From the IMG/VR virus record IMGVR_UViG_3300025715_000001: 64,000 nucleotides of DNA; one strand, written 5' to 3'. The notes under the pieces are model-generated. The model made no database searches and was not told the origin of the DNA. It saw nothing but the letters and a program-made list of their open reading frames with translations. Numbering within the stretch: position 1 is the first letter of the stretch; the number at the start of each line of letters is the position of its first letter. The translations under genes were made by a program, and so were the position numbers. Below are positions 937 to 24,382 of this stretch, one piece after another. The stretch comes from a virus.

Positions 937-1965
937 TCACTTCAGAGCTAGCGTATGATGCCCCATACGGAGAATATTCAGTGCAGCGTTGACATCACGG
1001 TCATGAACCGTATGGCATTCGCTGCACACCCATTCTCTGACCCCAAGACCCTTTCGACCTTTTGGGCCGCCTATCGAACCGCAACAGGAACAGGCTTGAG
1101 TTGTGAGGTGTTCAGAGACCTCACAGTACACCACCTTCCGCGCAATCGCTTTATATTCAAGAAGGTGGCGAAACATCGACCATCCGGCATCATTCACCGA
1201 TTTGGCCATGTTCGTTTTAGTCAACTTAGAACTACAGACATCCCCGACCACAATCAACTCACACTCTTTCGTGAGTCTATCGGATTCCTTGTGCAGAAAA
1301 TCCTTGCGCCGGTTGGCAATCTTGGCTTGAAGGTTACGCGCTTGCCGGGAACGACGCTTGCGCTGATGTTCCGCAATCCGCCGTTGCTGACTCCGATACC
1401 AGCGAGGCGCTTCAATCTTGCGACCATCCGAACACGTCGCCAGCGTTTTCAAGCCCAAGTCGATACCGACGTGTTGGGTTCCGGTTGTCGCTTCCGCTTC
1501 CGGGACTTCGCAGACGAAATTGACATACCAGCGACCCCGCGCATCCTGGGCAAAATTTCCTACCTTGATCGGGCCGGGGAGATCACGGCTGTTCCAAAAA
1601 CGGAAGGTGTGACCTGCATAGCACACGGTATCGTCCACCACCTTGACCCCGGACGCCTTGAACGGAATCCAGCCCAAAGACCGCTTGCCGCGCCAGCGCA
1701 ACTTACGCTTTTTGGCTTGCTTCCGACGTGTGGCATATTCATCGCACACCGCCTGCACGGTCTGCGAATGCAGGCCCAGTTCCTTGCTGCTACCCGTGGT
1801 CAATTTGCACAGGTCTTGATACGTCGGCCAGCGTTGATTCCAGCGCAGCGCGTGTTCCTGAGATTCATTACAGAAATTCCAGACCTGATTGCACGCGCGC
1901 GCCAAGACCGTGAGTTCGGCGGCGCAGGTGGAATCCTTGATTCGGTACTGAAAAGTCTTTATCAT
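937..1965 (-). CDS. tnpB: TnpB (OrfB) RNA-guided endonuclease of the IS200/IS605 family
   Basis: 342 aa. RuvC-like GIDLGLK, a later E, and DRDVNAALNI, plus zinc finger CSCCG...CSECH. The omega-RNA is expected to overlap its 3' end and the IS end near 900-1000. Confidence 0.9.
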   Translation of the reverse strand: MIKTFQYRIKDSTCAAELTVLARACNQVWNFCNESQEHALRWNQRWPTYQDLCKLTTGSSKELGLHSQTVQAVCDEYATRRKQAKKRKLRWRGKRSLGWIPFKASGVKVVDDTVCYAGHTFRFWNSRDLPGPIKVGNFAQDARGRWYVNFVCEVPEAEATTGTQHVGIDLGLKTLATCSDGRKIEAPRWYRSQQRRIAEHQRKRRSRQARNLQAKIANRRKDFLHKESDRLTKECELIVVGDVCSSKLTKTNMAKSVNDAGWSMFRHLLEYKAIARKVVYCEVSEHLTTQACSCCGSIGGPKGRKGLGVREWVCSECHTVHDRDVNAALNILRMGHHTLALK

Positions 1966-1994
1966 GCGGCTATTATATCAATTGGTCTAAGGCG

Positions 1995-2402
1995 ATGCAA
2001 GACGAGCTTAGGCGCGGTAGACACGTTGTTTATCAGCTTCATGTGCATTTGGTCTTTATCCCTAAGTATCGGCGAAAAATCTTTGATGCCGATGCACTAG
2101 GGCGATTGCGAACGGTCTTTGCGAAAGTTTGTAGCGATTTTGAGGCGACCTTGGATGAATTTAATGGCGAACCAGACCATGTTCATTTGCTGGTTCACTA
2201 CCCGCCAAAGGTCTCCGTATCGGCCTTGGTCAATTCGTTAAAAGGGGTCTCCGCACGGCGGTTGCGCCAAGACCGCCCGGATATTGCCCGCCGCTATTGG
2301 CGTGGCGGATTGTGGTCAGCGAGCTACTTTGCGGCTTCGTGCGGAGGTGCGCCCATTGAAGTATTGCGTCAGTACATTGAGCAACAACGCGCGCCAGAAT
2401 GA
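1995..2402 (+). CDS. tnpA: IS200/IS605 TnpA, Y1 (HUH) transposase
   Basis: 135 aa. HUH motif HVHLLV and catalytic-Tyr region SASYFAAS. Size and sequence are typical of TnpA-IS200. Confidence 0.9.
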   Translation: MQDELRRGRHVVYQLHVHLVFIPKYRRKIFDADALGRLRTVFAKVCSDFEATLDEFNGEPDHVHLLVHYPPKVSVSALVNSLKGVSARRLRQDRPDIARRYWRGGLWSASYFAASCGGAPIEVLRQYIEQQRAPE

Positions 2403-2421
2403 CCGTGCTTCGCCCGGTGCG

Positions 2422-2556
2422 CTATCCATCCCCGCCCTGAAGGACGGGGCCTTTCTCGCAAGCTTGGTAAATATCCGGGTCGTCATCCCGAAACTGGATG
2501 CACTTGGCGCATTGCAGATTGGTGGCGGCAATGCGCTTGGGGAGGGTGCCGGTCAT
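2422..2556 (-). pseudogene. 5' fragment of the small ORF split by the IS
   Basis: MTGTLPKRIAATNLQCAKCIQFRDDDPDIYQACEKG, then read-through into the IS hairpin. Its ATG overlaps the stop of the upstream 145-aa gene (ATGA). Confidence 0.3.
2430..2449 (+). repeat. IS subterminal imperfect palindrome CCCCG-CCCTGAAGGA-CGGGG
   Basis: Read directly. It has the same orientation and a similar loop to 909-928. Confidence 0.7.
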
Positions 2557-10357: not shown

Positions 10358-10421
10358 GATGACAAACTCCAAGTAGGTAAAAATTTTTGGAGTTCGTCGC
10401 TTCCCTTCCTACGGGGATGGC

Positions 10422-10498
10422 GGCGAACGATACGGGGGTAGGAAATGCCGGTCTACTTGGACACCGGCCAACCCGAAGGTTGCCCCGCATCGTTCGCC
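10422..10498 (-). ncRNA. c4-like antisense RNA, copy 1 (77 nt)
   Basis: Minus-strand fold: a 16-bp closing helix, CAACC-UUCG-GGUUG, GCCGGU-GUCCAAGUAG-ACCGGC, and joining strand AUUUCCUA. Loop and joiner are complementary to boxes at 10551-10558/10569-10576 and 10368-10376/10406-10411. The tetraloop and wobbles only make sense on the minus strand. Confidence 0.6.
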
Positions 10499-10518
10499 AT
10501 CGTAAAGTGTACCGACGT

Positions 10519-10543
10519 AAAAAAAGCGCCGGTACGATGGCGC
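10519..10543 (-). terminator. intrinsic-terminator-like hairpin + U7 between primase and c4-like RNA 1
   Basis: Minus strand GCGCC-AUCGUACC-GGCGC followed by UUUUUUU. An alternative hairpin GGCGC-AUCA-GCGCC uses the same 5' arm. Confidence 0.45.
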
Positions 10544-10642
10544 TGATGCGCCAAGTAGATTCAACGGGTTTTCTACGCCCGGCCCCGGCAGTCGCCAAGG
10601 CCAGACCAGAATACGCCCGTGGATTCTGGCGCGCAAGGGGAG

Positions 10643-13834: not shown

Positions 13835-14304
13835 TACAGCAACTCCCGATTTGCGGCACGGAAAAAGGATTCAAAATCAGCAAAAACCGTTAGAAGAGCG
13901 TCTTGTTGTTGCAAACACCACTCCACTGAACAGCGTTTTGCGCCTTTCCCGATCAGCAAAAGAATTGCTGGAAGCCCAATTTTTCGCAGACAGGCGATAG
14001 TATAGGGGAATTTCTCATCAGCAGACCCGGACGTTTCTTGGTATTTGCATTCAATGATGAGGCCGTCAGGATACTTGACCGAGTTCCAAACATAGAAATC
14101 AACCCGCATCGGCAACCCGTAGATACTCAAGAAATCGCCGCGATGCTGGTAAATAAAAAACGGCTGATCGCGTTCTTCAGGAATCGCGGCGACCTGAATA
14201 TATCCTTTTGATTTTAGGCGCTGAATAATTTGCTCCTCAAACGCCCTGCCGTTTTGATTGGCCTGGCGGCCTTGCTACTGAATCAATTTCGCCAAAGCGT
14301 TCAT
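13834..14304 (-). pseudogene. PD-(D/E)XK restriction-endonuclease-like ORF interrupted by an in-frame TAG at codon 10
   Basis: The ATG at 14304 overlaps the Dam stop. TAG lies at 14277-14275. The same frame continues QGRQANQNGRAFEEQIIQRLKSKGY...MRVDFYVW...LIIECKYQ (D...ExK). The track only reports the TTG-initiated 13834..14130 remainder. Confidence 0.55.
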
Positions 14305-14900
14305 GTCCGCCACCCCATTGTTTTGCTGATGCACCAGCCAAACCGGGAAAACTCGACGACAAACGCTTCAGCGCGGGATTCCGATCCAAAATAGAAAAAG
14401 GTCTGTCCGCGAGTGTTTCCGCTGACTCGCTTGCCATCGGTGGCTTCAAATGAGATGCGATGGTGGGTAAAACAGACGGCGGTGCTGCGTTCGCGTAAAG
14501 CGCGGAACCATTGAGTGTCAGTAGCGTTATTGACTAAAATAACCGCCTGTTCAATATGCCCGGCGCTCAAATTCTCAAGAAACGTCTCAATTGCGCGGGT
14601 AATCAATCCAGAAGAATAAGGGGGGTTCATCCAGACCCGAACGCCGTTGGGGTATTTGCGCTTATCCTTGCGCCACGCATTAACGAATGCTGACCGATCT
14701 TCAGTCAAAATTCGGGTAGCGCGGATGGTCTCATTAGCTTTTTCGGAAGAGAAAGGATCGAGATCAATGCCGTCCATCACAGCGCGGGCGGCTTCGACAT
14801 AAGAAATGGGGGTATACCACGAATCCGCATCGCGGTCGGGAAGAGTGGCGCCAGGCTTGCGACCAATATAGCCAAGCCGATTAACATCAGCGATTAACAT
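14301..14900 (-). CDS. phage Dam-family DNA N6-adenine methyltransferase
   Basis: DSWYTP... and the catalytic WMNPPYS motif. ATG at 14900 with GGAG 8 nt upstream. The longer track ORF start lies inside the structured RNA. Confidence 0.85.
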   Translation of the reverse strand: MLIADVNRLGYIGRKPGATLPDRDADSWYTPISYVEAARAVMDGIDLDPFSSEKANETIRATRILTEDRSAFVNAWRKDKRKYPNGVRVWMNPPYSSGLITRAIETFLENLSAGHIEQAVILVNNATDTQWFRALRERSTAVCFTHHRISFEATDGKRVSGNTRGQTFFYFGSESRAEAFVVEFSRFGWCISKTMGWRT

Positions 14901-14953
14901 GACAGACTCCTTGCAAAATTGGAGTCCGCCACTTCGTTTTCCACGACGAGGGT

Positions 14954-15031
14954 GGCGGACGGTACGGGGCTGTGGAAAAGCCGGTCTGCAAGGACACCGG
15001 CCAGCCTTACGGCTACCCCGCGCCATCCGCC
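14954..15031 (-). ncRNA. c4-like antisense RNA, copy 2 (78 nt)
   Basis: Same architecture as copy 1 with compensatory changes: UAGCC-GUAA-GGCUG, GCCGGU-GUCCUUGCAG-ACCGGC, joiner UUUUCCACAG. Matching boxes lie at 15082-15089/15099-15105 and 14908-14915/14937-14944. Confidence 0.6.
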
Positions 15032-15051
15032 ATTGAGGGAGAATCGGCCAT

Positions 15052-15075
15052 AAAAAAAGCGCCGATTCAAGGCGC
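15052..15075 (-). terminator. intrinsic-terminator-like hairpin + U7 upstream of c4-like RNA 2
   Basis: Minus strand GCGCC-UUGAAUC-GGCGC + UUUUUUU. Alternative hairpin GGCGC-GCA-GCGCC. Confidence 0.45.
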
Positions 15076-15161
15076 TGCGCGCCTTGCAGTTCGACCGGTT
15101 TCCACGCCGGGTTGCCGCTGCTGCGACAACGGTTAAAGCATACCCCGATACCGCGCGCTTT

Positions 15162-15977
15162 TCAACCATGGCCCGCTTCCCCGAACACGCCGGAACTCAA
15201 CCCGTGCTCCCCGCCGACCAGCAGATCCAGCAGCACCTCGATACGGACGCGGCGGTGATCCCAGACGCGCGGATGCTGAACGAGGAACTTCCGCACCGCT
15301 GGCATCGTAATCTGGTACTGCAACCGCCGTGTTTCCAGGTCATCCGCGCACGCTTCGCTGGCAATCCCGACTCCGCGATCTGCCTTTAGCCAGCCTTTCT
15401 CAATCCACTGCGCCACCGATTTACTCGCGATGCCCAGCATTTTTCCGACCTCGCTGGCGCTGTACCAGGGGCGATTCCAGCCGAGTTGCAATTCCCCTAC
15501 CCGATCCGCGACCGCGGATAGCGACCGCTGAAAACCGGCCTGATGCAACCGCCGATGCAGCGTGCTGAGCGCGTAGCCCCGTTCGATGCCGTCGCGCAAA
15601 AGGTCAATTTCAGCGTCCGTCCAGCGGCGCCAGGGCTGTTCTGCCACCCGTCGCACGCCCAGCATCCCCGCCCGCCATTTCAACCAACTGACCTCGCGGT
15701 CTACTTCCCGCGCCAGCCGTTTCAATTCCGGCTTGGGCTGGCGGTAGGCGCGTTTGATCGCCGCGTCAATCCACTCGGAGGATTCCTGCCGGCGATGCGG
15801 CATCCGACCGGCAATCCGCAACCGCAGCGCCCCGGCTTTCCCCTTGATCGAGTTTTTACTACGCTGCGGCAAAGCCGCCTGCGCGGCGGCCAGACCGCCC
15901 TTGGGCCACGCCGCTTTGAGCGCCTCCATCTCCCAGTCCTGCCAGGGAGTTTTCACCGCGCCCGGTTTACCCGCCAT
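15162..15977 (-). CDS. putative DNA-binding protein (Myb/SANT-like W-repeats + HTH)
   Basis: Repeated W..W/E..L segments, and an HTH-like YSASEVGKMLGIASKSVAQWIEKGWL. Confidence 0.5.
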   Translation of the reverse strand: MAGKPGAVKTPWQDWEMEALKAAWPKGGLAAAQAALPQRSKNSIKGKAGALRLRIAGRMPHRRQESSEWIDAAIKRAYRQPKPELKRLAREVDREVSWLKWRAGMLGVRRVAEQPWRRWTDAEIDLLRDGIERGYALSTLHRRLHQAGFQRSLSAVADRVGELQLGWNRPWYSASEVGKMLGIASKSVAQWIEKGWLKADRGVGIASEACADDLETRRLQYQITMPAVRKFLVQHPRVWDHRRVRIEVLLDLLVGGEHGLSSGVFGEAGHG

Positions 15978-16171
15978 TACTCAGTCTCCAGTTCCAGCCG
16001 GTCCATGGCCTGTTGAATACATTCGCACAGCGGCCCGATGTCGCTAAGCGCCACCAAGGCATCCATCGTCAATTTGGCCATGCCGCGGTCAAACGCGCGC
16101 AGCGTGAACAGCGTGCGGTCGTCGTCGTCGCTGTCCACGCCGATCACTTCCATCGTGTAGAGCTTGATCAT
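15977..16171 (-). CDS. hypothetical small acidic protein
   Basis: 64-aa ORF, tightly packed with its neighbours. Confidence 0.4.
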   Translation of the reverse strand: MIKLYTMEVIGVDSDDDDRTLFTLRAFDRGMAKLTMDALVALSDIGPLCECIQQAMDRLELETE

Positions 16172-16368
16172 GCCTCACCCTCAAACTCGCCATCCCAGAC
16201 GTAGCCCAGCCCGGTTTCCGCGTTCGTTTCCGGCAGCGGCGGCGGCTGGTAGAACGCGCAGTCCAGGGCGTGTGGGAAACAGGATTGAGATAACGCGCAA
16301 TCCACTTCCCAGAAGCTCGGCCCCTTCTGGGCGCGGCGGTAGTGACAGCACAGGAAACAGGCAGTCAT
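16168..16368 (-). CDS. hypothetical Cys-rich small protein
   Basis: MTACFLCCHY... The ATG overlaps the upstream stop (ATGA). Confidence 0.4.
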   Translation of the reverse strand: MTACFLCCHYRRAQKGPSFWEVDCALSQSCFPHALDCAFYQPPPLPETNAETGLGYVWDGEFEGEA

Positions 16369-16571
16369 CGCGCCTCCTTTCGGCGTTGCTCTTGTTGGAC
16401 ACACACCCGGCATTTGCGAATCTTCAGGTTGTCCACGGTCAGCGGTACGGTCGTTTCGTTTAAATCCCGCGCGAACAACCGCCCGCAGGCGGTCTGCCAC
16501 AGCCGCCCCGAGATCGGCGCCCACAGATGCGCGGCGCCAGGGCGAACGCGGAAATAGCGCCAGGTGGTCAT
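16365..16571 (-). CDS. hypothetical small protein
   Basis: 68-aa ORF with 4-nt overlaps on both sides. Confidence 0.4.
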   Translation of the reverse strand: MTTWRYFRVRPGAAHLWAPISGRLWQTACGRLFARDLNETTVPLTVDNLKIRKCRVCVQQEQRRKEAR

Positions 16572-17626
16572 GCGGCTTCCCCGCGAATCACCGAAAGGGC
16601 GGGCTTGGTATCGCCGACGAAATGCTCAATCGCCGCCGCGCCCTGCCGCAACATATCGGCCAGCGCGTGCCATTGCCGGAGTTCGTGGTCGCGGTCAATA
16701 ACCTCGCCGAATCCTTCCAGATTGGCTGCCAGCAACGCCATGGACACACGGGCGTTTTCAATGGTGTCCAAATGCACCTTCAATTCCCGCTGTTGCATGG
16801 AGTAGCGATCAATCTGGGTTTGCAATCCAGACAACAGCGTTTCGGATTGCCGCACCTTGCGGTCTATTTCAGCCAGTTCTGATTCACGCTCTTTCAGCTT
16901 GGCGACGACTTGTTGCTGAACCAATTCGCGCTGCTGTTGCTTCAGTTCCGCCAGATCACTGCGTAAATCCCGCTCGGTTTGCTTGAGGTGCTCGTAGTCA
17001 TCCGGGACCACGATGACCTTTTCCGGTTCGGGGACGACGGTCGCAAGATGGTTGATTTCCTGAGTGGCCTGCTCAAGCCGATCTTGCATCATGCGGTCGC
17101 GGATCGTGAGCAGGTCGATTTTCTCTTCGAGTTCCCGCACCTTCTTGCGCTGTTCGTTGGATTCCTCTTTCCATTCGCCGGCGCGTTGAGTCTCGACGCC
17201 AAGCTGTTGCTCGGCAAACTCGCGGGCCTGGCGCTCGGCTTCCGCCTTGGCTTCCGCCGCTTCGCGTGCCTGTCGTTCCGCCTCCACGTCAAGCAGCGTG
17301 CCTTGCTCGGCTTCTGGCTCCTTATCGGACAGCAGTTCGAGGGCGGCGCGGATAGAGGGGGCGACAGTCAAATTAAAATCGCGGTTATAATTTGCCGCGA
17401 GTTTCATGTATTTGCTGGCTGTTGGTTGTGAAAACCCAATCGCCCCTGATTCCTGCTGCTGTTTCAACCACGGCAACCACTCGCCATGATTCAGGCTAGC
17501 CTTGACCTGCAACAACATCAGCCCGCAATTCGTGGCGTGTTGAACGGCTTCGCTGGCCTTGCTATTCGCCAGCCGGTGTTCAAGGTTGATTTGTTCGACG
17601 GTGGGAAGCTGAATCAAATCGTTCAT
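16568..17626 (-). CDS. DUF3102-like coiled-coil protein
   Basis: N-terminal INLEHR...A..A...CG..L..VK..L.HGEWLPWL....S.PTASKYMKLA, followed by a long E/Q/R coiled coil. Confidence 0.65.
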   Translation of the reverse strand: MNDLIQLPTVEQINLEHRLANSKASEAVQHATNCGLMLLQVKASLNHGEWLPWLKQQQESGAIGFSQPTASKYMKLAANYNRDFNLTVAPSIRAALELLSDKEPEAEQGTLLDVEAERQAREAAEAKAEAERQAREFAEQQLGVETQRAGEWKEESNEQRKKVRELEEKIDLLTIRDRMMQDRLEQATQEINHLATVVPEPEKVIVVPDDYEHLKQTERDLRSDLAELKQQQRELVQQQVVAKLKERESELAEIDRKVRQSETLLSGLQTQIDRYSMQQRELKVHLDTIENARVSMALLAANLEGFGEVIDRDHELRQWHALADMLRQGAAAIEHFVGDTKPALSVIRGEAA

Positions 17627-17799
17627 AGCGTTTTCGCCTTCTCGAATTCGGCATAGGTGGCTTGGCGGATTTCGGCGCGCAGCATCAGGCCCGCCACGCC
17701 ATTGCGAATCGCCTTGGCGGCGCGCACATTCGCCAGTGCATAGAGCAGCGAGCGTTCTGGATCACCGTCCAGGTCCTTGACGCTCTTAATACCGAACAT
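17623..17799 (-). CDS. hypothetical 58-aa protein (below the track cutoff)
   Basis: AAGGAA SD, then the ATG at 17799. The stop overlaps the next ATG. Confidence 0.4.
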   Translation of the reverse strand: MFGIKSVKDLDGDPERSLLYALANVRAAKAIRNGVAGLMLRAEIRQATYAEFEKAKTL

Positions 17800-17964
17800 C
17801 CGGTTCCTTGGAATCCGCGAAGTGAGTCATGGATGACGAACGACCCGGCGGGTCGAAGAAGGGATTGCGTAGGGCACGGGACGCGCCAGCCATCCGGCGA
17901 TGCGCGTCCACCCGGAGCGGCCCGTCCCGCCGTTCTTAAAAAGCCGTCGCCGCCGTCTTTTTCG

Positions 17965-19257
17965 TTACGCTGTTGCATAGTCGAATCCATCGTTGCGCTG
18001 AATCAGGGTGAAGTGTTTGTAGCTGGCCCCTACGGTTCCCGCTGCGGTTTTGATGTCCAGCGTTCCCGTGGCGCGAATTCCGGTGAGCCGGGCAACATAA
18101 CTTCCGGCATATTTGCCTTTCGGCATGTGGAGTTTCACGATGTCCCCGGTTGAAAACCCATGGACTCGTTTGATGCGCCCGGCATTACCGCGTGGAAATC
18201 CGAACCGGTCGGTGCGCACTACTTGATGCGTTCCGCGCCCCTTGGCGGTGATAACCAGCGGCTTCATGCCGTCTCGAATCGAAACCATCTCGCCCGATTC
18301 CGCCACGCATACGGCGTCAATCCAGTGGTCTTTTGCGTAGCCTTGCCGAGTCCGGTTGAACTTGGTGCGCCCGCCGCTTCCGGTGGTGACGGGTAGCCAC
18401 GCTTTCAGGCGATTGACCAATGCCCATCGGCTGGCATTCACCGCCGCCGCGTCTTTCAGCGGCGCTTTGGCTTGCGCCTTGATCTTGCGGAGTATCTCCG
18501 GCTTGTCTTTGAGAAATTCATCAATCGGGCGACTGCTCTTGCGCTGATTGCAGGGGTGACAAGCCAGAGCCAGATTGGATATCCGGTTGCTCCCACCCGC
18601 CGCTTTGGGCTGGATATGCTCGACCTGCAACGGCACGTCCTTCTTACCACAATAGGCACAGGTGCGATGCCATTTTTCGAGCAGATATTCCCGAACTTCG
18701 TAGCCGGCCAATTCGCCCTGCTGATACTCGGTTCCGCTGACTTCCGGGTTGACCATCGCCTGCATGTCGAACTTGACCAGTTCAACCGTCGCCTCGGTGA
18801 TGGGGCAACGCGCCGCCAACTTGCGAATGACGGACTCGGTATTGACCACCCGCGATTCAATGGACGGCGGTAGCCAGCCGGTAGTGCGCGTGCGGTTCAA
18901 AAACCGGGCTGGCCGATAGCGAGTCTTGCGCCCGCGCCGTCCTCGGCGTAATGAGCGGCGAGATTCAAGGCTGTTCTTGATCGCCTGTCCGCGATGATTC
19001 AAGTTCGAGCCGAACAGTACCACCGCGCCCTGCTGCTCGAAGTGGCCGACCAGGGCGATGCCGGTCGTTTTGCTGCCCGGATCAATTTTGACTTCAACCG
19101 GCTGTATGTCGCCATCGGCCCGGTCTTTCAGAATGATGGTGAACGGATGCAACCGATAGACGGCGGCTTTGCCCGCCGTCAACAACTTGCGCGCCCGCGC
19201 TGGTCGGCAGGGCATCAAGGGCTTCTTCGTGTTGCTCAAGACAAAAACGGAATTCAT
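17965..19257 (-). CDS. iscB: IscB, OMEGA-family RNA-guided nuclease (PLMP + RuvC + bridge helix + HNH)
   Basis: KKPLMPCRPARARKLL (PLMP), KIDPGSKTTGIAL (RuvC-I), RRSLRRGRRGRKTRYRPARF (Arg-rich helix), CAYCG..LQVEHIQPKAAGGSNRISNLALACHPCNQRK (HNH), DHWIDAVCVA (RuvC-III). ATG at 19257. Confidence 0.85.
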   Translation of the reverse strand: MNSVFVLSNTKKPLMPCRPARARKLLTAGKAAVYRLHPFTIILKDRADGDIQPVEVKIDPGSKTTGIALVGHFEQQGAVVLFGSNLNHRGQAIKNSLESRRSLRRGRRGRKTRYRPARFLNRTRTTGWLPPSIESRVVNTESVIRKLAARCPITEATVELVKFDMQAMVNPEVSGTEYQQGELAGYEVREYLLEKWHRTCAYCGKKDVPLQVEHIQPKAAGGSNRISNLALACHPCNQRKSSRPIDEFLKDKPEILRKIKAQAKAPLKDAAAVNASRWALVNRLKAWLPVTTGSGGRTKFNRTRQGYAKDHWIDAVCVAESGEMVSIRDGMKPLVITAKGRGTHQVVRTDRFGFPRGNAGRIKRVHGFSTGDIVKLHMPKGKYAGSYVARLTGIRATGTLDIKTAAGTVGASYKHFTLIQRNDGFDYATA

Positions 19258-19520
19258 GGGTTTACACCCTCTCGAAAATCGGTAACGGTCATCTCGCAGG
19301 GAGTGCAACGGTCGTTCAGTCGCAGCGTTCGCGCATTCACCACGTCGCGCAGCATCGCTTTTGACGACAGGGCTTGAGACTGATGAAGCATCTCAAGGTG
19401 TCTCGCTTTCGCTTCACGTTGCATCGTCTACTCTCTGATTAGAAAGTCTGCTGGTTGAGTCTCATGCGGATTTGGGGCTGTCAGGGATGACAGTCACAAA
19501 CCCGCACGGCGGCGACTCAA
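19258..19520 (-). ncRNA. candidate IscB omega-RNA (structured 5' region); ends uncertain
   Basis: Minus-strand helices GGUUGAGUC...GACUCAACC enclosing CUGUCA-UCCC-UGACAG, and CUUGAGA-UGCUUCAUCA-GUCUCAAG. The position immediately 5' of iscB is as expected for IscB systems. Confidence 0.5.
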
Positions 19521-19704
19521 CCATTCGGGCAAGGTGCGCCCAGGCACGGAAAACCAGCGCCCGTTACTGATGAAGGCTATGCGGTTCATGAGCGCCAACC
19601 CAGTCGGCGGCGGCGCAGCACGTCGCGGGTGATGTCCGCGACAATCAGGCGGTGCAGGCGCCGGCGCAGGGCGCGCCGATAAAAGTCAGCGAGATCGCCC
19701 ACAG

Positions 19705-19920
19705 TCACGCCGCTCGCTCAACCAATCCGGCGCATTCCGTACCAATTTCATGGGCCGTGACCTGGCCATGGGTCGCCCGTTCGATGGCTACCGCATGGCG
19801 GGCTAACAGTTGCGTCGAGCCAGCTTTCCACAAATGCACCGCCTGCTGGCTCACCCCCACCTGGTCGGCGAGCGCCTTGGCGCCGCCGCAAATTTCAATC
19901 GCGCGTTTGATCGTGTTCAT
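19705..19920 (-). CDS. Cro/YdaS-like HTH regulator
   Basis: 71 aa. AIEICGGAKALADQVGVSQQAVHLWK is a YdaS/Cro-type HTH. It is the first gene of the leftward arm. Confidence 0.7.
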   Translation of the reverse strand: MNTIKRAIEICGGAKALADQVGVSQQAVHLWKAGSTQLLARHAVAIERATHGQVTAHEIGTECAGLVERAA

Positions 19921-19967
19921 AACTAATCAGCATATAAGCTGGCTTGCCGGGGTGCAATCCCCCTTGC

Positions 19968-19996
19968 TTGACACTAAAGCTTGCTTTAGTAGTCTG
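19968..19996 (+). promoter_or_regulatory. sigma70-like promoter (TTGACA, 16-17 nt, TAGTCT) overlapped by an 18-bp palindrome
   Basis: TTGACA at 19968-19973. The palindrome ACTAAAGC-TT-GCTTTAGT at 19973-19990 is a likely operator. Confidence 0.4.
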
Positions 19997-20178
19997 ATTC
20001 ATCAGATGTGAGGGCGCGCGTTGGTTTGCGTCTATTTGCGCAAGAGGTATTGATAATATGCAAGTTGGCTTGTATATTCATCGTGCGGTCGTAAGACCGT
20101 ACCTAAGCCGGATCGTAGAGCATTGCTCGTATCGGTCTTTTTGGGGATGTTCCCCTTAGTAAGTTGGAGCAGTTATTT

Positions 20179-21153
20179 ATGGCTGAAAACCTCGTTGTTT
20201 CTCTTCCCAAAACCAGCCGCCTGGACGATGCGATCAAGGATGTCATTAGCGGCCTGGTGCAGAAAGCTCAGCCTGCCGATCTGGTTGATACTGAGAAGCT
20301 GGTCGCCAATCAGAACATGCGGGTCGAAGTTATTCGCCCAATCGTTGCGGCGCTGATCTTCGAGAAGCACAACCGCATCAATCGCCAGTTGACCCCCTCT
20401 CGCGTTTACGACTACCAGGACGCTATGAAGCGCGGTGAATGGAAGGTTCACCACCAGGGGATTGCGTTCTACTCCGATCATACGTTGGCCGACGGGCAGC
20501 ATCGCATGGCGGCCCTGGCGCTGGCCGGGCTGGAACTGCCCTTCTCCATTTATCCCAACTTTACCAAGGACGCCATTGACGCCATTGACCGCACCGTTCG
20601 CCGGACAGCGGGAGAAGCGTTGCAGATGATGGGGTATGAGGATGCCAAGGTTAAGGCGGCAGTCGCTAAAGGCGCGATGGAATACGCCTCCGAGTTGGAA
20701 TCCGGCAAGAAGCCGCGCTTTACGGACCCACAGATCGAACGCTTCGTGATCGACAACGATCATCGCCTGTCCGAAGCGGTACGGATCGGGCGCGAATCGT
20801 TGAAAAACGTTTCCGATGCGTGTCTGGGCGAGGGCGAGGCGGCGCTGCTGTCCCAGTTGATGATCATGGGCGGCTATCCGGTGTTCCACGTGGTCGGGTT
20901 TATCTCCAGCATCCAACAGGGCGTCGCTACCTACCCTGAGTCACCGACCGTTGACCTGTCGCGGCAGTTCGTCAAGGCCAAATTTTCCGACAACAGCAAA
21001 GATCGCCTGAACAAGAAGGAGAAGATGGCGCTGGCGTTGAAGGGAGCGGCCTTGTGGACTGAGGGTAAGTCGGTCGCGCGGGTCAAGTGGAATCCGGTCA
21101 AGGAGACCCTGCCTACCAATCGCCCGCCGATTGAACTGAAAGCCGCCGCTTAA
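20179..21153 (+). CDS. ParB/Srx-superfamily protein (DGQHR-type)
   Basis: NR.....RV.DY..AM..GEW......I......LADGQHRMAAL. ATG at 20179 with an upstream GGAG. Confidence 0.6.
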   Translation: MAENLVVSLPKTSRLDDAIKDVISGLVQKAQPADLVDTEKLVANQNMRVEVIRPIVAALIFEKHNRINRQLTPSRVYDYQDAMKRGEWKVHHQGIAFYSDHTLADGQHRMAALALAGLELPFSIYPNFTKDAIDAIDRTVRRTAGEALQMMGYEDAKVKAAVAKGAMEYASELESGKKPRFTDPQIERFVIDNDHRLSEAVRIGRESLKNVSDACLGEGEAALLSQLMIMGGYPVFHVVGFISSIQQGVATYPESPTVDLSRQFVKAKFSDNSKDRLNKKEKMALALKGAALWTEGKSVARVKWNPVKETLPTNRPPIELKAAA

Positions 21154-21169
21154 CTTTTACCAGTAATCA

Positions 21170-21191
21170 GGGCCGGGAGACCGGCCCTTTT
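21170..21191 (+). terminator. rho-independent terminator
   Basis: GGGCCGG-GAGA-CCGGCCC + TTTT. Confidence 0.6.
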
Positions 21192-21207
21192 CCCATGGGG
21201 AATCGCA

Positions 21208-22563
21208 ATGAGCAACGTGATTGAAATGCAAGACCAGCGCCGGCGCATCGCGCAAGAAGCGTGGACCCGCATCAATACCCAGTCCAAGCGGTTGCGCGAG
21301 GATTGGCTAGTGGTGGGGGAATACCTGATCGACCTGCGCAAGCAGTATCCCGCCAATCAGGATTTTGGCCGGGAAGCGCGCCTGGTGTTTCGGGATATGG
21401 CTAGAAACGAGCGCGGGGCGGCGGTGTGGTGGGCCGAACTGGCGCCGCGCCATCGGGAGTTTTGCGCAGAGATGTGGCCGACCCTCAACAATCCGCGTGC
21501 CCTCCGCAGTTGGTTTAAGGAAGAGCAGGGGGAAGAGGATGACGGGATGGAGGAACCCATTCAGGAGCCAGAAATCGAGGCAGTGGCGTCGTCACATCAT
21601 GTGACAACGCCCGCAGTAGAGCAGTCGGAACCCGAAACCGTTGAAATCACCGAGAATAGCCCGGAAATCGAGGTGGAACAGGCTTCTGAAAAAGACGAAG
21701 AAGACCGAGAACAAGGGTCCAATCGTAAAAGCCCATTACACGATTACCTAACCGCTAAAGAAATCGAAACCCTCCATCGGTTTTATCCTAAGAGCCGGAC
21801 TCTTGGAACAAGAATGGCGATACGCATTTTGAAAAAAATGGCGGACGCTAAACAGATCAAAACTGTACGAGAACTGATCAAGGTAATTGACGCCAAATTT
21901 AAAGATAAAACCAATCAAATGAATATTGATGGCGATTATAAATCAGTCCTCAACGCCCGCATGATCCATTTTGAATTGCCCATCAAATTCGCCAACGTAT
22001 GGGAATTCGTTCCAGAGAAACCGGGCAAGATTTTTATGAAGATGCTCAACGATGCCGAGGAACTTTATCAAGTTGGCGAGGCGATCAAGCATATTCCGAG
22101 AACCAACATGCCCCAGCGCGAAGTAGAGTCCGCCAAGGTCTGGAATGCTTTGCATCGCGCGCCGATACCCTCCGCCAATTCCGATCATGGGGGAAACGAT
22201 CAACCGACAGAACCCGCCGAGATCGCCCCGCCCAGCCGTGAAGACCAGATCAAGATTTGCGGCGTTTCGTTCTGGCCGCAGACTGAGAACCAACCCAAAG
22301 CACCGTATCACGTAGTATGGGGTGCTGCGCATATCGTCGACGAGGTTTATCGAGAATTTCACTTGGCCTGCAAGATGCCAATAGAGGACGCCATCATGGC
22401 CGCTAAACAGCTTTGCCGGGCGTTGCGCCTGTTTAATCGGGAGGGCGGACAGCTTACCCTCGCCATGCTCACGGCCATGGCAAACCACAAAGAGTTGCTC
22501 AATGATCATACAGCCACTTCATGGCCGACGCATTCAGGCAAGCCGCCCGCGTTTGACGCCTAA
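21208..22563 (+). CDS. hypothetical protein with an acidic central region
   Basis: 451-aa ORF. No motif recognised. Confidence 0.55.
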   Translation: MSNVIEMQDQRRRIAQEAWTRINTQSKRLREDWLVVGEYLIDLRKQYPANQDFGREARLVFRDMARNERGAAVWWAELAPRHREFCAEMWPTLNNPRALRSWFKEEQGEEDDGMEEPIQEPEIEAVASSHHVTTPAVEQSEPETVEITENSPEIEVEQASEKDEEDREQGSNRKSPLHDYLTAKEIETLHRFYPKSRTLGTRMAIRILKKMADAKQIKTVRELIKVIDAKFKDKTNQMNIDGDYKSVLNARMIHFELPIKFANVWEFVPEKPGKIFMKMLNDAEELYQVGEAIKHIPRTNMPQREVESAKVWNALHRAPIPSANSDHGGNDQPTEPAEIAPPSREDQIKICGVSFWPQTENQPKAPYHVVWGAAHIVDEVYREFHLACKMPIEDAIMAAKQLCRALRLFNREGGQLTLAMLTAMANHKELLNDHTATSWPTHSGKPPAFDA

Positions 22564-22587
22564 CCTCACGCCCCCTCCCCGTTCCCA

Positions 22588-22610
22588 CCCGGCCCCGCGC
22601 CGGGTTTTTT
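22588..22610 (+). terminator. rho-independent terminator
   Basis: CCCGGC-CCCGC-GCCGGG + TTTTTT. Confidence 0.65.
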
Positions 22611-22783
22611 GTGTCTGTCGCTGCAATCTAGCTTGCATAAGCTCAAGTATGCTTGTATTATTCTCCTACCCCGTTGCCCTCCGGCCTTGAGTCCCCGGTC
22701 GGCGGCGGGGCACCTCCTTTTCGGCTTGGCGAGGCTTTTGGTGGGGCTGATGACCCAAGCCGTTTTTTCGGCCAGAGGTAGTT

Positions 22784-23191
22784 ATGAATCAAACCAGAGC
22801 GCAAGCCATAGCGGAAGGGGAAAAAACCTACTTTACAGGTAAGCCGTGTCCTCATGGACATATAGCAGAAAGAAGGACAAGGGATTGTTTTTGTGTTGAG
22901 TGTAGAAAAAATCATCAACGAATATATCAAAGAGCATATATAAAAGAATATGAAAGGAAAGATGATAGGAAACAATATTTTAAAGAATACGACAAACAAA
23001 GGGATGTATTAAAAAAATATGCTAGACAAAACACAAATAAGCTTTTATCCAAAGGAATAATCATTAAACAAAAATGCTTGAAATGCGGCGATTCTAATGT
23101 TGAAGCTCATCATCCAGATTACAACAAGCCTTTAGAAGTAATTTGGCTGTGCCGTATTCATCACGCGGAAATCCACCATCCGCTTATCTAA
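22784..23191 (+). CDS. HNH-type endonuclease-like protein on an AT-rich cassette
   Basis: C-terminal CLKCG....VEAHHPDYNKPLEVIWLCRIHHAEIH. The local GC content is far below its surroundings. Confidence 0.65.
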   Translation: MNQTRAQAIAEGEKTYFTGKPCPHGHIAERRTRDCFCVECRKNHQRIYQRAYIKEYERKDDRKQYFKEYDKQRDVLKKYARQNTNKLLSKGIIIKQKCLKCGDSNVEAHHPDYNKPLEVIWLCRIHHAEIHHPLI

Positions 23192-23200
23192 TGGTGGTTT

Positions 23201-23239
23201 CCTCTTCCGGCTTCGCCTTTTGGTCGGAAGGGGCTTTTT
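23201..23239 (+). terminator. rho-independent terminator
   Basis: CCUCUUCCG...CGGAAGGGG stem (one G-U pair), then C + TTTTT. Confidence 0.55.
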
Positions 23240-23252
23240 CAGGAGAGCAGTG

Positions 23253-23459
23253 ATGAACGAATCTCAGGCTCAAACCGGCGCTCTGCGCATCGGGCGCGGC
23301 GCCACCCTTCACCCGGCACGGAAAGACCGCTATGGAGTGACCGCCTTGTGCGGTTGCCCCAACACCCAGAACGGGTTTGGCGTCAACGGCGGGCAGTTTT
23401 TCGCCGGCCAGGCCCCCACCTGCAAACGCAGCCACAGCAAACAGGAGCAAGCGCAATGA
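23253..23459 (+). CDS. hypothetical small protein
   Basis: AGGAGA SD, ATG at 23253, and the stop overlaps the next ATG. Confidence 0.35.
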   Translation: MNESQAQTGALRIGRGATLHPARKDRYGVTALCGCPNTQNGFGVNGGQFFAGQAPTCKRSHSKQEQAQ

Positions 23460-23770
23460 ACGAATTTAAGACCGAACTTGAGTTCGCCGGCGAGACGCGC
23501 CAGGCGCGGGTGTTGTGGGGGGCTGTGTGGGGCGACATCTACCTGGGAAGAATAGAAATTTCCCTGGTCGTGGACGAGACGTACACGACCCTTGGGGTGT
23601 ACGACCCCCGCCCGATCACGATATGGCTGGACGTGACCGAGATCATCAGTGACCGCCAAGCGCTGGCGTTGACGAAGGCCATCAAAGCAGCGGCGGAAAA
23701 GGCGCGCGCCGAGGACTACCACGACTCGGACATGCAGGACTGGGAAGAGCGGTACGCCCGCGCCGCATGA
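23456..23770 (+). CDS. hypothetical protein
   Basis: AGGAG SD. Sequence MNEFKTELEFAGE... Confidence 0.5.
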   Translation: MNEFKTELEFAGETRQARVLWGAVWGDIYLGRIEISLVVDETYTTLGVYDPRPITIWLDVTEIISDRQALALTKAIKAAAEKARAEDYHDSDMQDWEERYARAA

Positions 23771-23989
23771 AAAAAGCCGCCTGGTGGTGACACACCGGGC
23801 GGCCTTGGAGAACGAGATGAAAATTCAGAAGCAGTATGTGTCATCCCGCGCCGCCGCGCAAGCCGCCGCGCTTCTGGCGACTCCAGCCCAGCCCCGGCAA
23901 CAGCGGGAAGCCCGGCGCCTGTTGCGGGCGTGGCAGAACCAGCAATCCCAACCGCGCCCCGTGGCGCGTTAATCCCAGAGGGCAACGAT

Positions 23990-24382
23990 ATGACCATCAT
24001 CAATTTGACCCAGCATCCCGCGACCGCCGAACAGATCGAGGCGGGAGTCCTTGATCTGTCCCCCGCTGACCGCGCGTTGTTGGCCTCGGCGCTCACGTTT
24101 GATGAAGCGCCTGATGAGGCAACGCTCGTGACTCGCGCCATCACCATCGCCCTGATGGCCGCTGGGCATTCCAGCGGTGCGCGCTCGGCCATGATCGGCG
24201 GTGCGCCCTATTTCATGCGCCCCCTGGAACAGGCGTTGTGGGATCAGAACATTCGCCCGCTCTACGCCTTTTCGATCCGGGAAAGTGTCGAACGCCCCCG
24301 CCCCAGCGGGGCTGTGGAGAAGGTTACCGTCTTTAGGCACGCCGGATTTGTCGGCGATGAGTTCATGGAAATCAGCCGTTAA
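23990..24382 (+). CDS. hypothetical protein
   Basis: MTIINLTQHPATAEQIEAGV... Conserved-looking phage protein of unknown function. Confidence 0.5.
   Translation: MTIINLTQHPATAEQIEAGVLDLSPADRALLASALTFDEAPDEATLVTRAITIALMAAGHSSGARSAMIGGAPYFMRPLEQALWDQNIRPLYAFSIRESVERPRPSGAVEKVTVFRHAGFVGDEFMEISR

Follow-up and report, generated by a model that had tools for sequence, protein, structure and literature searches.

A probable non-autonomous IS200/IS605-family transposon carrying IscB and an omega-RNA in the leftward early operon of a phage

The present analysis concerns a 64,000-nucleotide stretch of viral DNA (IMG/VR record IMGVR_UViG_3300025715_000001), the whole of which is termed the window, and a 1703-bp element on its minus strand that carries an iscB gene behind a structured RNA. 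IscB is an RNA-guided nuclease, small and ancestral to Cas9. The window is phage DNA, with proteins that include a terminase-like protein, an SU10-type portal and adaptor, a capsid protein, Rha, Bro-N, Dam and ParB-N proteins, helicases and an AAA_24/DUF669 replication module. Judged from its sequence, the element at 17819-19521 (minus strand) is very probably a non-autonomous transposon of the IS200/IS605 family, with an intact IscB and its omega-RNA as cargo, situated in an early operon of the phage. The features on which this reading is built are as follows.

17819..19521, minus strand: whole IscB element, 1703 bp, reading 5'-GTTGAGTC ... GACTCACTTC-3' on the iscB sense strand
17965..19257, minus strand: iscB coding sequence (protein P0001), ATG at 19257, stop codon ending at 17965, 430 aa
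19258..19521, minus strand: omega-RNA scaffold of the HEARO type (by HEARO match, covariation and fold), which may extend into the reading frame to about 19168
19478..19493, minus strand: conserved subterminal hairpin CTGTCATCCCTGACAG of the right end (RE), with a compensatory variant CCGTCA/TGACGG in the related locus L003
17819..17964, minus strand: non-coding 3' end of the element (the left end, LE, on the opposite strand), kept past the stop codon in the loci L001, L003, L004, L007 and L009
17814..17818, minus strand: flank motif GCGGA, candidate target-adjacent motif (TAM) and TnpA target, from a census of insertion flanks
19522..19537, minus strand: putative 16-nt guide GCACCTTGCCCGAATG, flank DNA directly 5' of the conserved scaffold
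19522..19589, minus strand: first 23 codons of a small phage open reading frame (ORF; MNRIAFISNGRWFSVPGRTLPEW) cut by the insertion, the presumed supplier of the guide
19705..19920, minus strand: cro-like gene heading the leftward operon (Pfam YdaS_toxin 2.5e-17, P22_Cro 3.9e-7)

The IscB gene and its upstream RNA

The initial annotation, made from the letters alone, had credited the 430-aa ORF with the full IscB motif set, and this is borne out by Pfam, by alignment to PDB chains and by the positions of the motifs. The RRXRR family matched residues 4-181 over its whole profile (positions 1-174) with E 1.7e-69 and HNH matched residues 200-243 with E 5.8e-13, while a phmmer search of PDB chains with P0001 returned only IscB, IsrB and small Cas9 relatives, headed by TbaIscB (8e-40) and OgeuIscB (7XHT/7UTN; about 4e-28). 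PLMP lies at residues 13-16, inside the RRXRR region, and is followed by a split RuvC composed of RuvC-I (D59 in IDPGS), RuvC-II (E159 in VELVKFD) and RuvC-III (H311/D314 in KDHWIDA), an Arg-rich bridge helix (RRGRRGRKTRYRPARF, residues 104-119, aligned to the bridge-helix region of TbaIscB) and an HNH domain with E213-H214 (VEHIQP) and CxxC pairs at 200-203 (CAYCG, 200-204) and 233-236 (CHPCN, 233-237). The IDPG, E, (E/H)H and DHxxDA motifs line up with solved IscB chains, in which D59, E159, H311 and D314 find their corresponding residues; the alignment with OgeuIscB-type chains reaches residue 362 of 430, and the last 70 or so residues, where a C-terminal TAM-interacting domain would be expected, lie beyond it.

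Comparison with characterised IscB proteins revealed no inactivating substitution in RuvC or HNH, and D59, E213, H214, N228, N237, the four cysteines, H311 and D314 are invariant when P0001 is aligned with nine homologues from viral contigs. Pairwise ratios of nonsynonymous to synonymous substitution (dN/dS) between the homologues and the window iscB range from 0.08 to 0.14. With its catalytic columns intact and its dN/dS low, P0001 is, as far as sequence can tell, an intact IscB under purifying selection. An alternative TTG start 17 codons upstream would give 447 aa; all ten homologues start at MNSVFVL or M..VFVL.

An HNH domain is also what a protein-only HNH homing endonuclease would possess, the upstream structure then being a leader or attenuator, and phage early regions often contain free-standing HNH genes (PMC13565253). 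Such a nature is hardly credible for a protein that unites PLMP, split RuvC, bridge helix and HNH and gives full-length matches to solved IscB-omega-RNA complexes, and whose upstream RNA, besides matching HEARO, shows covariation with iscB over 10 loci.

The structured RNA 5' of iscB had been proposed as an omega-RNA scaffold, and HEARO matching, covariation and folding all agree with the proposal. HEARO RNA, later shown to be the omega-RNA of IscB (PMC10055086), supplied the covariance model: RF02033 matched 19282-19491 on the minus strand over the full length of the model (positions 1-211), though under the Rfam gathering score, with 40.4 bits (E 4.6e-6 in a 4-kb search, 7e-5 for the whole window). 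The scores are graded among relatives, from 91-145 bits in loci with an IscB of 56-64% identity down to 43-57 bits in the clade of the window (L001-L004). A 5' stem can be deciphered by eye, in which GUUGAGUC (19521-19514) pairs with GACUCAAC (19461-19454), and a compensatory change (GUCGAGUC / GAUUCGAC) preserves it in the locus L009; the HEARO model misaligns this stem because the window clade has an insert of about 60 nt there. The CUGUCA/UGACAG helix follows at 19493-19478, and in the central hairpin CUUGAGA (19397-19391) pairs with UCUCAAG (19379-19373), replaced in relatives by UUGGGA/UCCCAG, UACAGA/UCUGUA and CCGGGA/UCCCGG. All three helices named earlier are thus present in the sequence, with one correction, that the first G of GGUUGAGUC (19522) belongs to the flank and not to the scaffold. 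RNAalifold on ten loci gave 22 consensus pairs, 16 of them with compensatory changes, including the pseudoknot-forming stem and the central hairpin, and the single-sequence fold has -105.9 kcal/mol (z = -4.8 against shuffles).

Element ends, guide and candidate target motif

With reference to the loci L001-L004, similarity to the window begins exactly at GTTGAGTC (19521) and ends at ...GTCATCCATGACTCACTTC / CACTTC (17819), about 146 nt past the iscB stop codon, and the flanks upstream and beyond differ from locus to locus. Metagenome contigs from three runs break at 19521 or 17819 and pass into unlike continuations, and a chromosomal copy in a Pseudomonadota metagenome-assembled genome (MAG; G002) aligns over element positions 1-1703. 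The locus alignments, the contig breaks and this chromosomal copy together therefore delimit the element as 19521..17819, 1703 bp. The hairpin GTCATCC(C/A)TGAC occurs at both ends on one strand (minus), as GTCATCCCTGAC at 19491-19480 and as GTCATCCATGAC at 17837-17826, and the element ends showed neither terminal inverted repeats nor a duplication of the flank; hairpins on the same strand at both ends, free of inverted repeats and flank duplication, are the pattern of IS200/IS605. Between 17819 and 19521 no Y1 (HUH) TnpA is encoded according to the ORF list and Pfam, and the element, having no TnpA of its own, is therefore non-autonomous, like most iscB elements (PMC10055086), iscB being seldom found beside tnpA (about 1.5%; PMC10055086).

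Comparison with relatives lacking the insertion had been suggested as the way to the ends and the TAM; a census of insertions disclosed a bias in the flanks. Among 22 distinct insertion flanks 3' of CACTTC, G occupies position +4 in all 22 and position +3 in 18, with A at +5 in 15, and the bases 5' of the scaffold hold no conserved motif across loci. The excised sense strand would read a guide match and then NNGGA, which makes NNGGA a likely TAM, as judged from these flanks, and TCCNN on the other strand a candidate TnpA target. The motif was also considered as a trace of insertion at ribosome-binding sites, and this was rejected, an ORF start lying 6-22 nt downstream in 5 of the 22 flanks against 25% at random positions.

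The polarity of the ends follows from elements in the loci L029, L030 and L039, in which TnpB reads away from an end of about 120 nt shared with the window element; as the shared end lies on the start side of TnpB, the 3' end of the IscB element is LE on the opposite strand. In these three loci (L029:7283-7400 in the first) the same LE terminates elements with TnpB and a small ribbon-helix-helix (Arc-like) ORF, one of which sits in a phage with a cro 79% identical to that of the window, and their flanks (GTTGG, AACGA and GTCGC) are devoid of the GGA motif. A further element of about 460 nt, in a MAG chromosome (L041:2270-2730, minus strand of the locus), consists of an omega-RNA scaffold and LE with no iscB; it is a nuclease-less derivative resembling palindrome-associated transposable elements (PATE-like) and could supply a second guide in trans.

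This polarity agrees with published IscB systems, in which the RE of the transposon gives rise to the scaffold and the flank directly 5' of it, outside the boundary, serves as guide (PMC10055086). The 16-nt length, usual for IscB, and the 5' position of the putative guide of the window were adopted from published IscB work (PMC10055086). The guide had been expected at the 5' edge of the scaffold near 19520-19560, and with the scaffold beginning at 19521 it would indeed occupy 19537-19522. GCACCTTGCCCGAATG occurs only once in the window, and the nearest other site has 3 mismatches, no better than chance. The ORF list also upholds the claim of a 31-codon ORF (ATG at 19589) that reads into the structured region. 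An ancestral 88-aa fusion of the cut ORF and the 58-aa gene beyond the element, in frame if the element is removed, was considered and discarded, since the homologues of the 58-aa protein are 57-64 aa long and begin at about the same Met.

Two related insertions give a view of other flanks. In L001 (3690-5500) the guide-side flank is a diverged 13-codon copy (MSSARFRLTPVNR) of the start of an intact gene (MSAARFRLTPVNRLE...) whose first codon lies 11 nt beyond the element; copy and gene match at 29/39 nt and 12/13 aa, the differences being mostly synonymous, and the intact gene has CTGGA at the point homologous to the insertion. In a 110-kb viral contig (L002:3646-3743) a tRNA gene (Rfam tRNA, 39.7 bits) precedes a related IscB element by 13 nt, so that the guide there would match the 3' flank of the tRNA.

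Related IscB genes, 56-92% identical, were found in 11 IMG/VR contigs, and a 19-mer of LE in 5 viral contigs and, with 14 matches, in three bacterial assemblies (Candidatus Contendobacter odensis and two Pseudomonadota MAGs) in which IscB homologues are also present. Most of the bacterial matches lie at contig ends, as expected for a repeat, and on this sequence evidence the family is present in multiple copies in Candidatus Contendobacter and in related MAGs from activated sludge. A search of the three element-bearing MAGs for the structural region of the phage found nothing, and no prophage match therefore serves to assign the host. A 3.5-kb stretch is near-complete in DNA runs from anaerobic digesters and activated sludge (2016, 2022) and in activated-sludge metatranscriptomes. 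The carrier is apparently a wastewater phage of activated-sludge Gammaproteobacteria, harbouring a typical and apparently active IscB element.

The phage early operon, mobility and element-free alleles

The element had been placed downstream of cro in the leftward early operon, a placement confirmed by the Pfam matches of the cro-like gene and by the gene context: on the minus strand the order is the cro-like gene, two small ORFs, the element, the 58-aa gene and a DUF3102 gene, continuing towards Dam, primase and helicase genes. No strong terminator was found on the minus strand between the cro-like gene and 19521, and read-through into the element is therefore plausible; as read from the sequence, the RNA that enters the element probably stems from transcription on the cro side. 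Upstream genes of iscB elements in general are biased to the same orientation and read-through transcription is needed (PMC10055086).

Elsewhere in the window the following features were recorded.

937-1965, minus strand: TnpB (OrfB_IS605 and Cas12f1-like TNB)
1995-2402, plus strand: Y1 TnpA (E 9.3e-44), divergent from TnpB
10416-10504, minus strand: C4 antisense RNA (69.7 bits, over the Rfam gathering score)
14948-15037, minus strand: C4 antisense RNA (64.3 bits, over the Rfam gathering score)

A weak isrK-like match lies at 10519-10601. Two Pfam scans yielded nothing at E <= 0.01 for an AT-rich 135-aa ORF at 22784-23191 (plus strand), and positions 14000-24000 had no megablast match among GenBank phages.

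The earlier statement that no TnpA is adjacent holds for the neighbourhood of iscB, yet the same window encodes the Y1 TnpA listed above. Together with TnpB it makes up a complete IS605-type element (window 937-2450), and the phage therefore carries two different OMEGA nucleases. The end hairpins of this IS605 element, near 2440 (CCCCGTCCTTCAGGGCGGGG) and at 927-908 (CCCCGGTCTTTAGGCCGGGG), are CCCCG...CGGGG and CCCCGG...CCGGGG and differ from the GTCATCC type, so its TnpA was judged an unlikely mobiliser of the IscB element. All three bacterial genomes in which the element ends occur also encode Y1 TnpA, and the GTCATCC hairpin was not found at any TnpA locus examined from those genomes.

The following mechanism can be presumed. 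The element would have no promoter of its own for the guide, and an early transcript from the cro side would read through 19537-19522 into the scaffold and yield a guide-bearing omega-RNA, to which IscB, translated from the same transcript, would bind. The complex would cut DNA carrying GCACCTTGCCCGAATG followed by approximately NNGGA, that is, the uninterrupted site, either as the joint left by TnpA excision (which would read ...CCCGAATG|GCGGA...) or as the same gene in an element-free sibling phage, and repair from an occupied copy would restore or spread the element. Moves to new sites would need a Y1 TnpA in trans that recognises the GTCATCC(C/A)TGAC hairpins and the TCCNN target. Where transcription starts, how long the guide is, which TnpA acts, and that cleavage and homing occur are the inferred parts of this scheme.

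RNA-guided homing between phages is plausible under such a scheme. A bolder version, which we regard as possible and no better than tentative, is that the element acts as an RNA-guided homing cassette that uses, or is used by, the phage, with a guide taken from a small early gene and co-infecting uninterrupted siblings being cut. If so, the cut siblings would be destroyed or converted, dragging neighbouring cro-side markers along, and no earlier natural example would be known in which a guide RNA, and not protein recognition, directs homing or marker exclusion from phage to phage.

Uninterrupted alleles do occur, in drinking-water and wastewater metagenomes. A 674-nt contig of run X9 consists of cro (20014-19704), 14 other letters, 19576-19521, 20 other letters and 19634-19591, and a contig of run X13 has the same joint. 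On the minus strand both hold an uninterrupted ORF, MNRYSFISNGRWFSVPGRTLPEW-QLQWTAR-DITRDVLRRRRLGW..., that runs past 19521 with no element, so the protospacer region is present and continuous in these relatives. In the window the tail DITRDVLRRRRLGWRS is part of the preceding ORF (19708-19586), and the small ORFs after cro are thus a mosaic, the X9 and X13 contigs fusing the N-terminal part of the second ORF to DITRDVLRRRRLGW, which in the window ends the first. The locus L025 has a homologue of the first small ORF only. In viral contigs with cro homologues (L016, L017) homology stops right after cro at 19704, and the exact 19-mer of the guide flank is absent from viral contigs. Viral contigs likewise gave no relative of the 58-aa downstream protein, whose homologues elsewhere (L018-L025) share DNA with the window only from 17807 downward, their upstream parts being unrelated.

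That the element has instead been domesticated as a weapon or regulator of the phage, its fixed guide directing the cutting of competing phages or host DNA or the repression of a target, has to be weighed at this point. TldR proteins, which derive from TnpB, bind and repress targets in temperate phages. A comparable role for the window element would suit its early-operon site and co-orientation with cro, the recovery of 98-100% of its sampled words in DNA runs from four studies (2016-2022), the relatives in 11 viral contigs, the purifying selection on IscB and the existence of element-free relatives with the protospacer. It is nonetheless improbable: both transposon ends and their hairpins are intact, and the family is multi-copy with different flanks in bacterial chromosomes; the guide is local flank, different at each locus and with no other match in the window; the nuclease residues are all intact, unlike those of TldR-type domesticates; and selfish iscB elements as a rule lie in the same orientation as the genes upstream of them (PMC10055086).

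Evidence on the RNA itself comes from the metatranscriptome run X6, as assembled contigs rather than reads. A 354-nt contig spanning exactly 19168-19521 has a depth of 575, against 11.6-34.5 in the adjoining contigs, which are identical to the window; this is 17-50 times the depth of its neighbours, where three DNA runs differ at most about 2-fold. These depths hint at an abundant, stable scaffold RNA. With the HEARO match on the one hand and the lack of inactivating substitutions on the other, both refuting conditions named in the initial annotation thus turned out in its favour.

Several findings weigh against the reading of an active transposon as set out above. The HEARO score of 40.4 bits lies below the Rfam gathering score of 83 and is insufficient alone, so support for the scaffold rests on the graded relatives and the covariation and not on the match alone. 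The X6 contigs give neither the ends nor the strand of the RNA, and in another contig of this run the scaffold is linked to a different flank, so that the abundant RNA may stem from other copies and not from this phage. The single TnpA of the window belongs to an IS605 element with other end hairpins. Where NNGGA is expected (GCGGA in the window), X9 has GCAGT and X13 GCGGT, and by their sequence these element-free alleles may be poor targets. A joined-flank pattern found no two-sided empty site with both window flanks in Joint Genome Institute (JGI) metagenome contigs.

The low HEARO score, the want of a cognate TnpA nearby and the truncated 5' flank gene in a mosaic region would also be expected of a decaying passenger, a dead insertion whose protein or RNA is inactive and which persists at a neutral site. 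We hold this to be highly improbable, since the frame is open with conserved catalytic residues and dN/dS near 0.1, compensatory changes keep the scaffold helices within the close clade, and the depth over the scaffold in the RNA library is high.

Relation to known systems

Overall, the locus is a known kind of IscB element, for which the ends are now mapped, a guide is inferred and a target motif is proposed as a candidate. It offers a fully delimited natural example of IscB in a phage early operon, and because occupied and element-free alleles are available in related phages from public metagenomes, OMEGA homing between co-infecting phages becomes directly testable. The compact 430-aa IscB clade with its candidate non-AT TAM is likewise available for characterisation.

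With regard to homing, the nearest likeness is to SegF, SegB and Mob, free-standing homing endonucleases of T-even phages, and to intronless homing, in that a phage nuclease could cut an allele lacking it and repair would copy the gene; the window element would differ in recognising its target by RNA guide and TAM, with the occupied allele immune because the insertion splits the site. A 2026 review includes, as a theoretical category, 'transposon non-restorative homing' into coinfected phages (PMC13565253), and a literature search returned no report of, and no experiment on, homing by phage-borne IscB.

The element has LE in common with the PATE-like element of L041 and the TnpB/Arc IS605 elements of L029, L030 and L039, from which it is set apart by its full iscB cargo; one transposon end thus serves IscB elements, TnpB/Arc elements and elements lacking a nuclease within the same microbial community. 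As for the RNA, the positions of the pseudoknot and the central hairpin of HEARO RF02033 are kept, directly upstream of an RRXRR/HNH ORF as in that family, whereas the 5' stem region with its insert of about 60 nt is left unaligned by the model.

The closest characterised counterparts are OgeuIscB (7UTN/7XHT) and GstIscB of Geobacillus stearothermophilus (Meers et al., PMC10055086), with which the window protein shares domain order and catalytic residues, and the window element shares an upstream omega-RNA, a scaffold at RE, a guide outside the element, the lack of tnpA in cis, co-orientation with upstream genes and, provided that the candidate is correct, a TAM in the flank of LE. The window IscB has only about 30% alignable identity to OgeuIscB (E 4e-28), and its scaffold forms a divergent subgroup of HEARO, in which the RE hairpin lies within a longer P1 insert. 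Its candidate TAM, NNGGA, is G-rich, whereas the Gst TAM is AT-rich (TTCAT-type), and, unlike both counterparts, the window element is carried by a phage genome.

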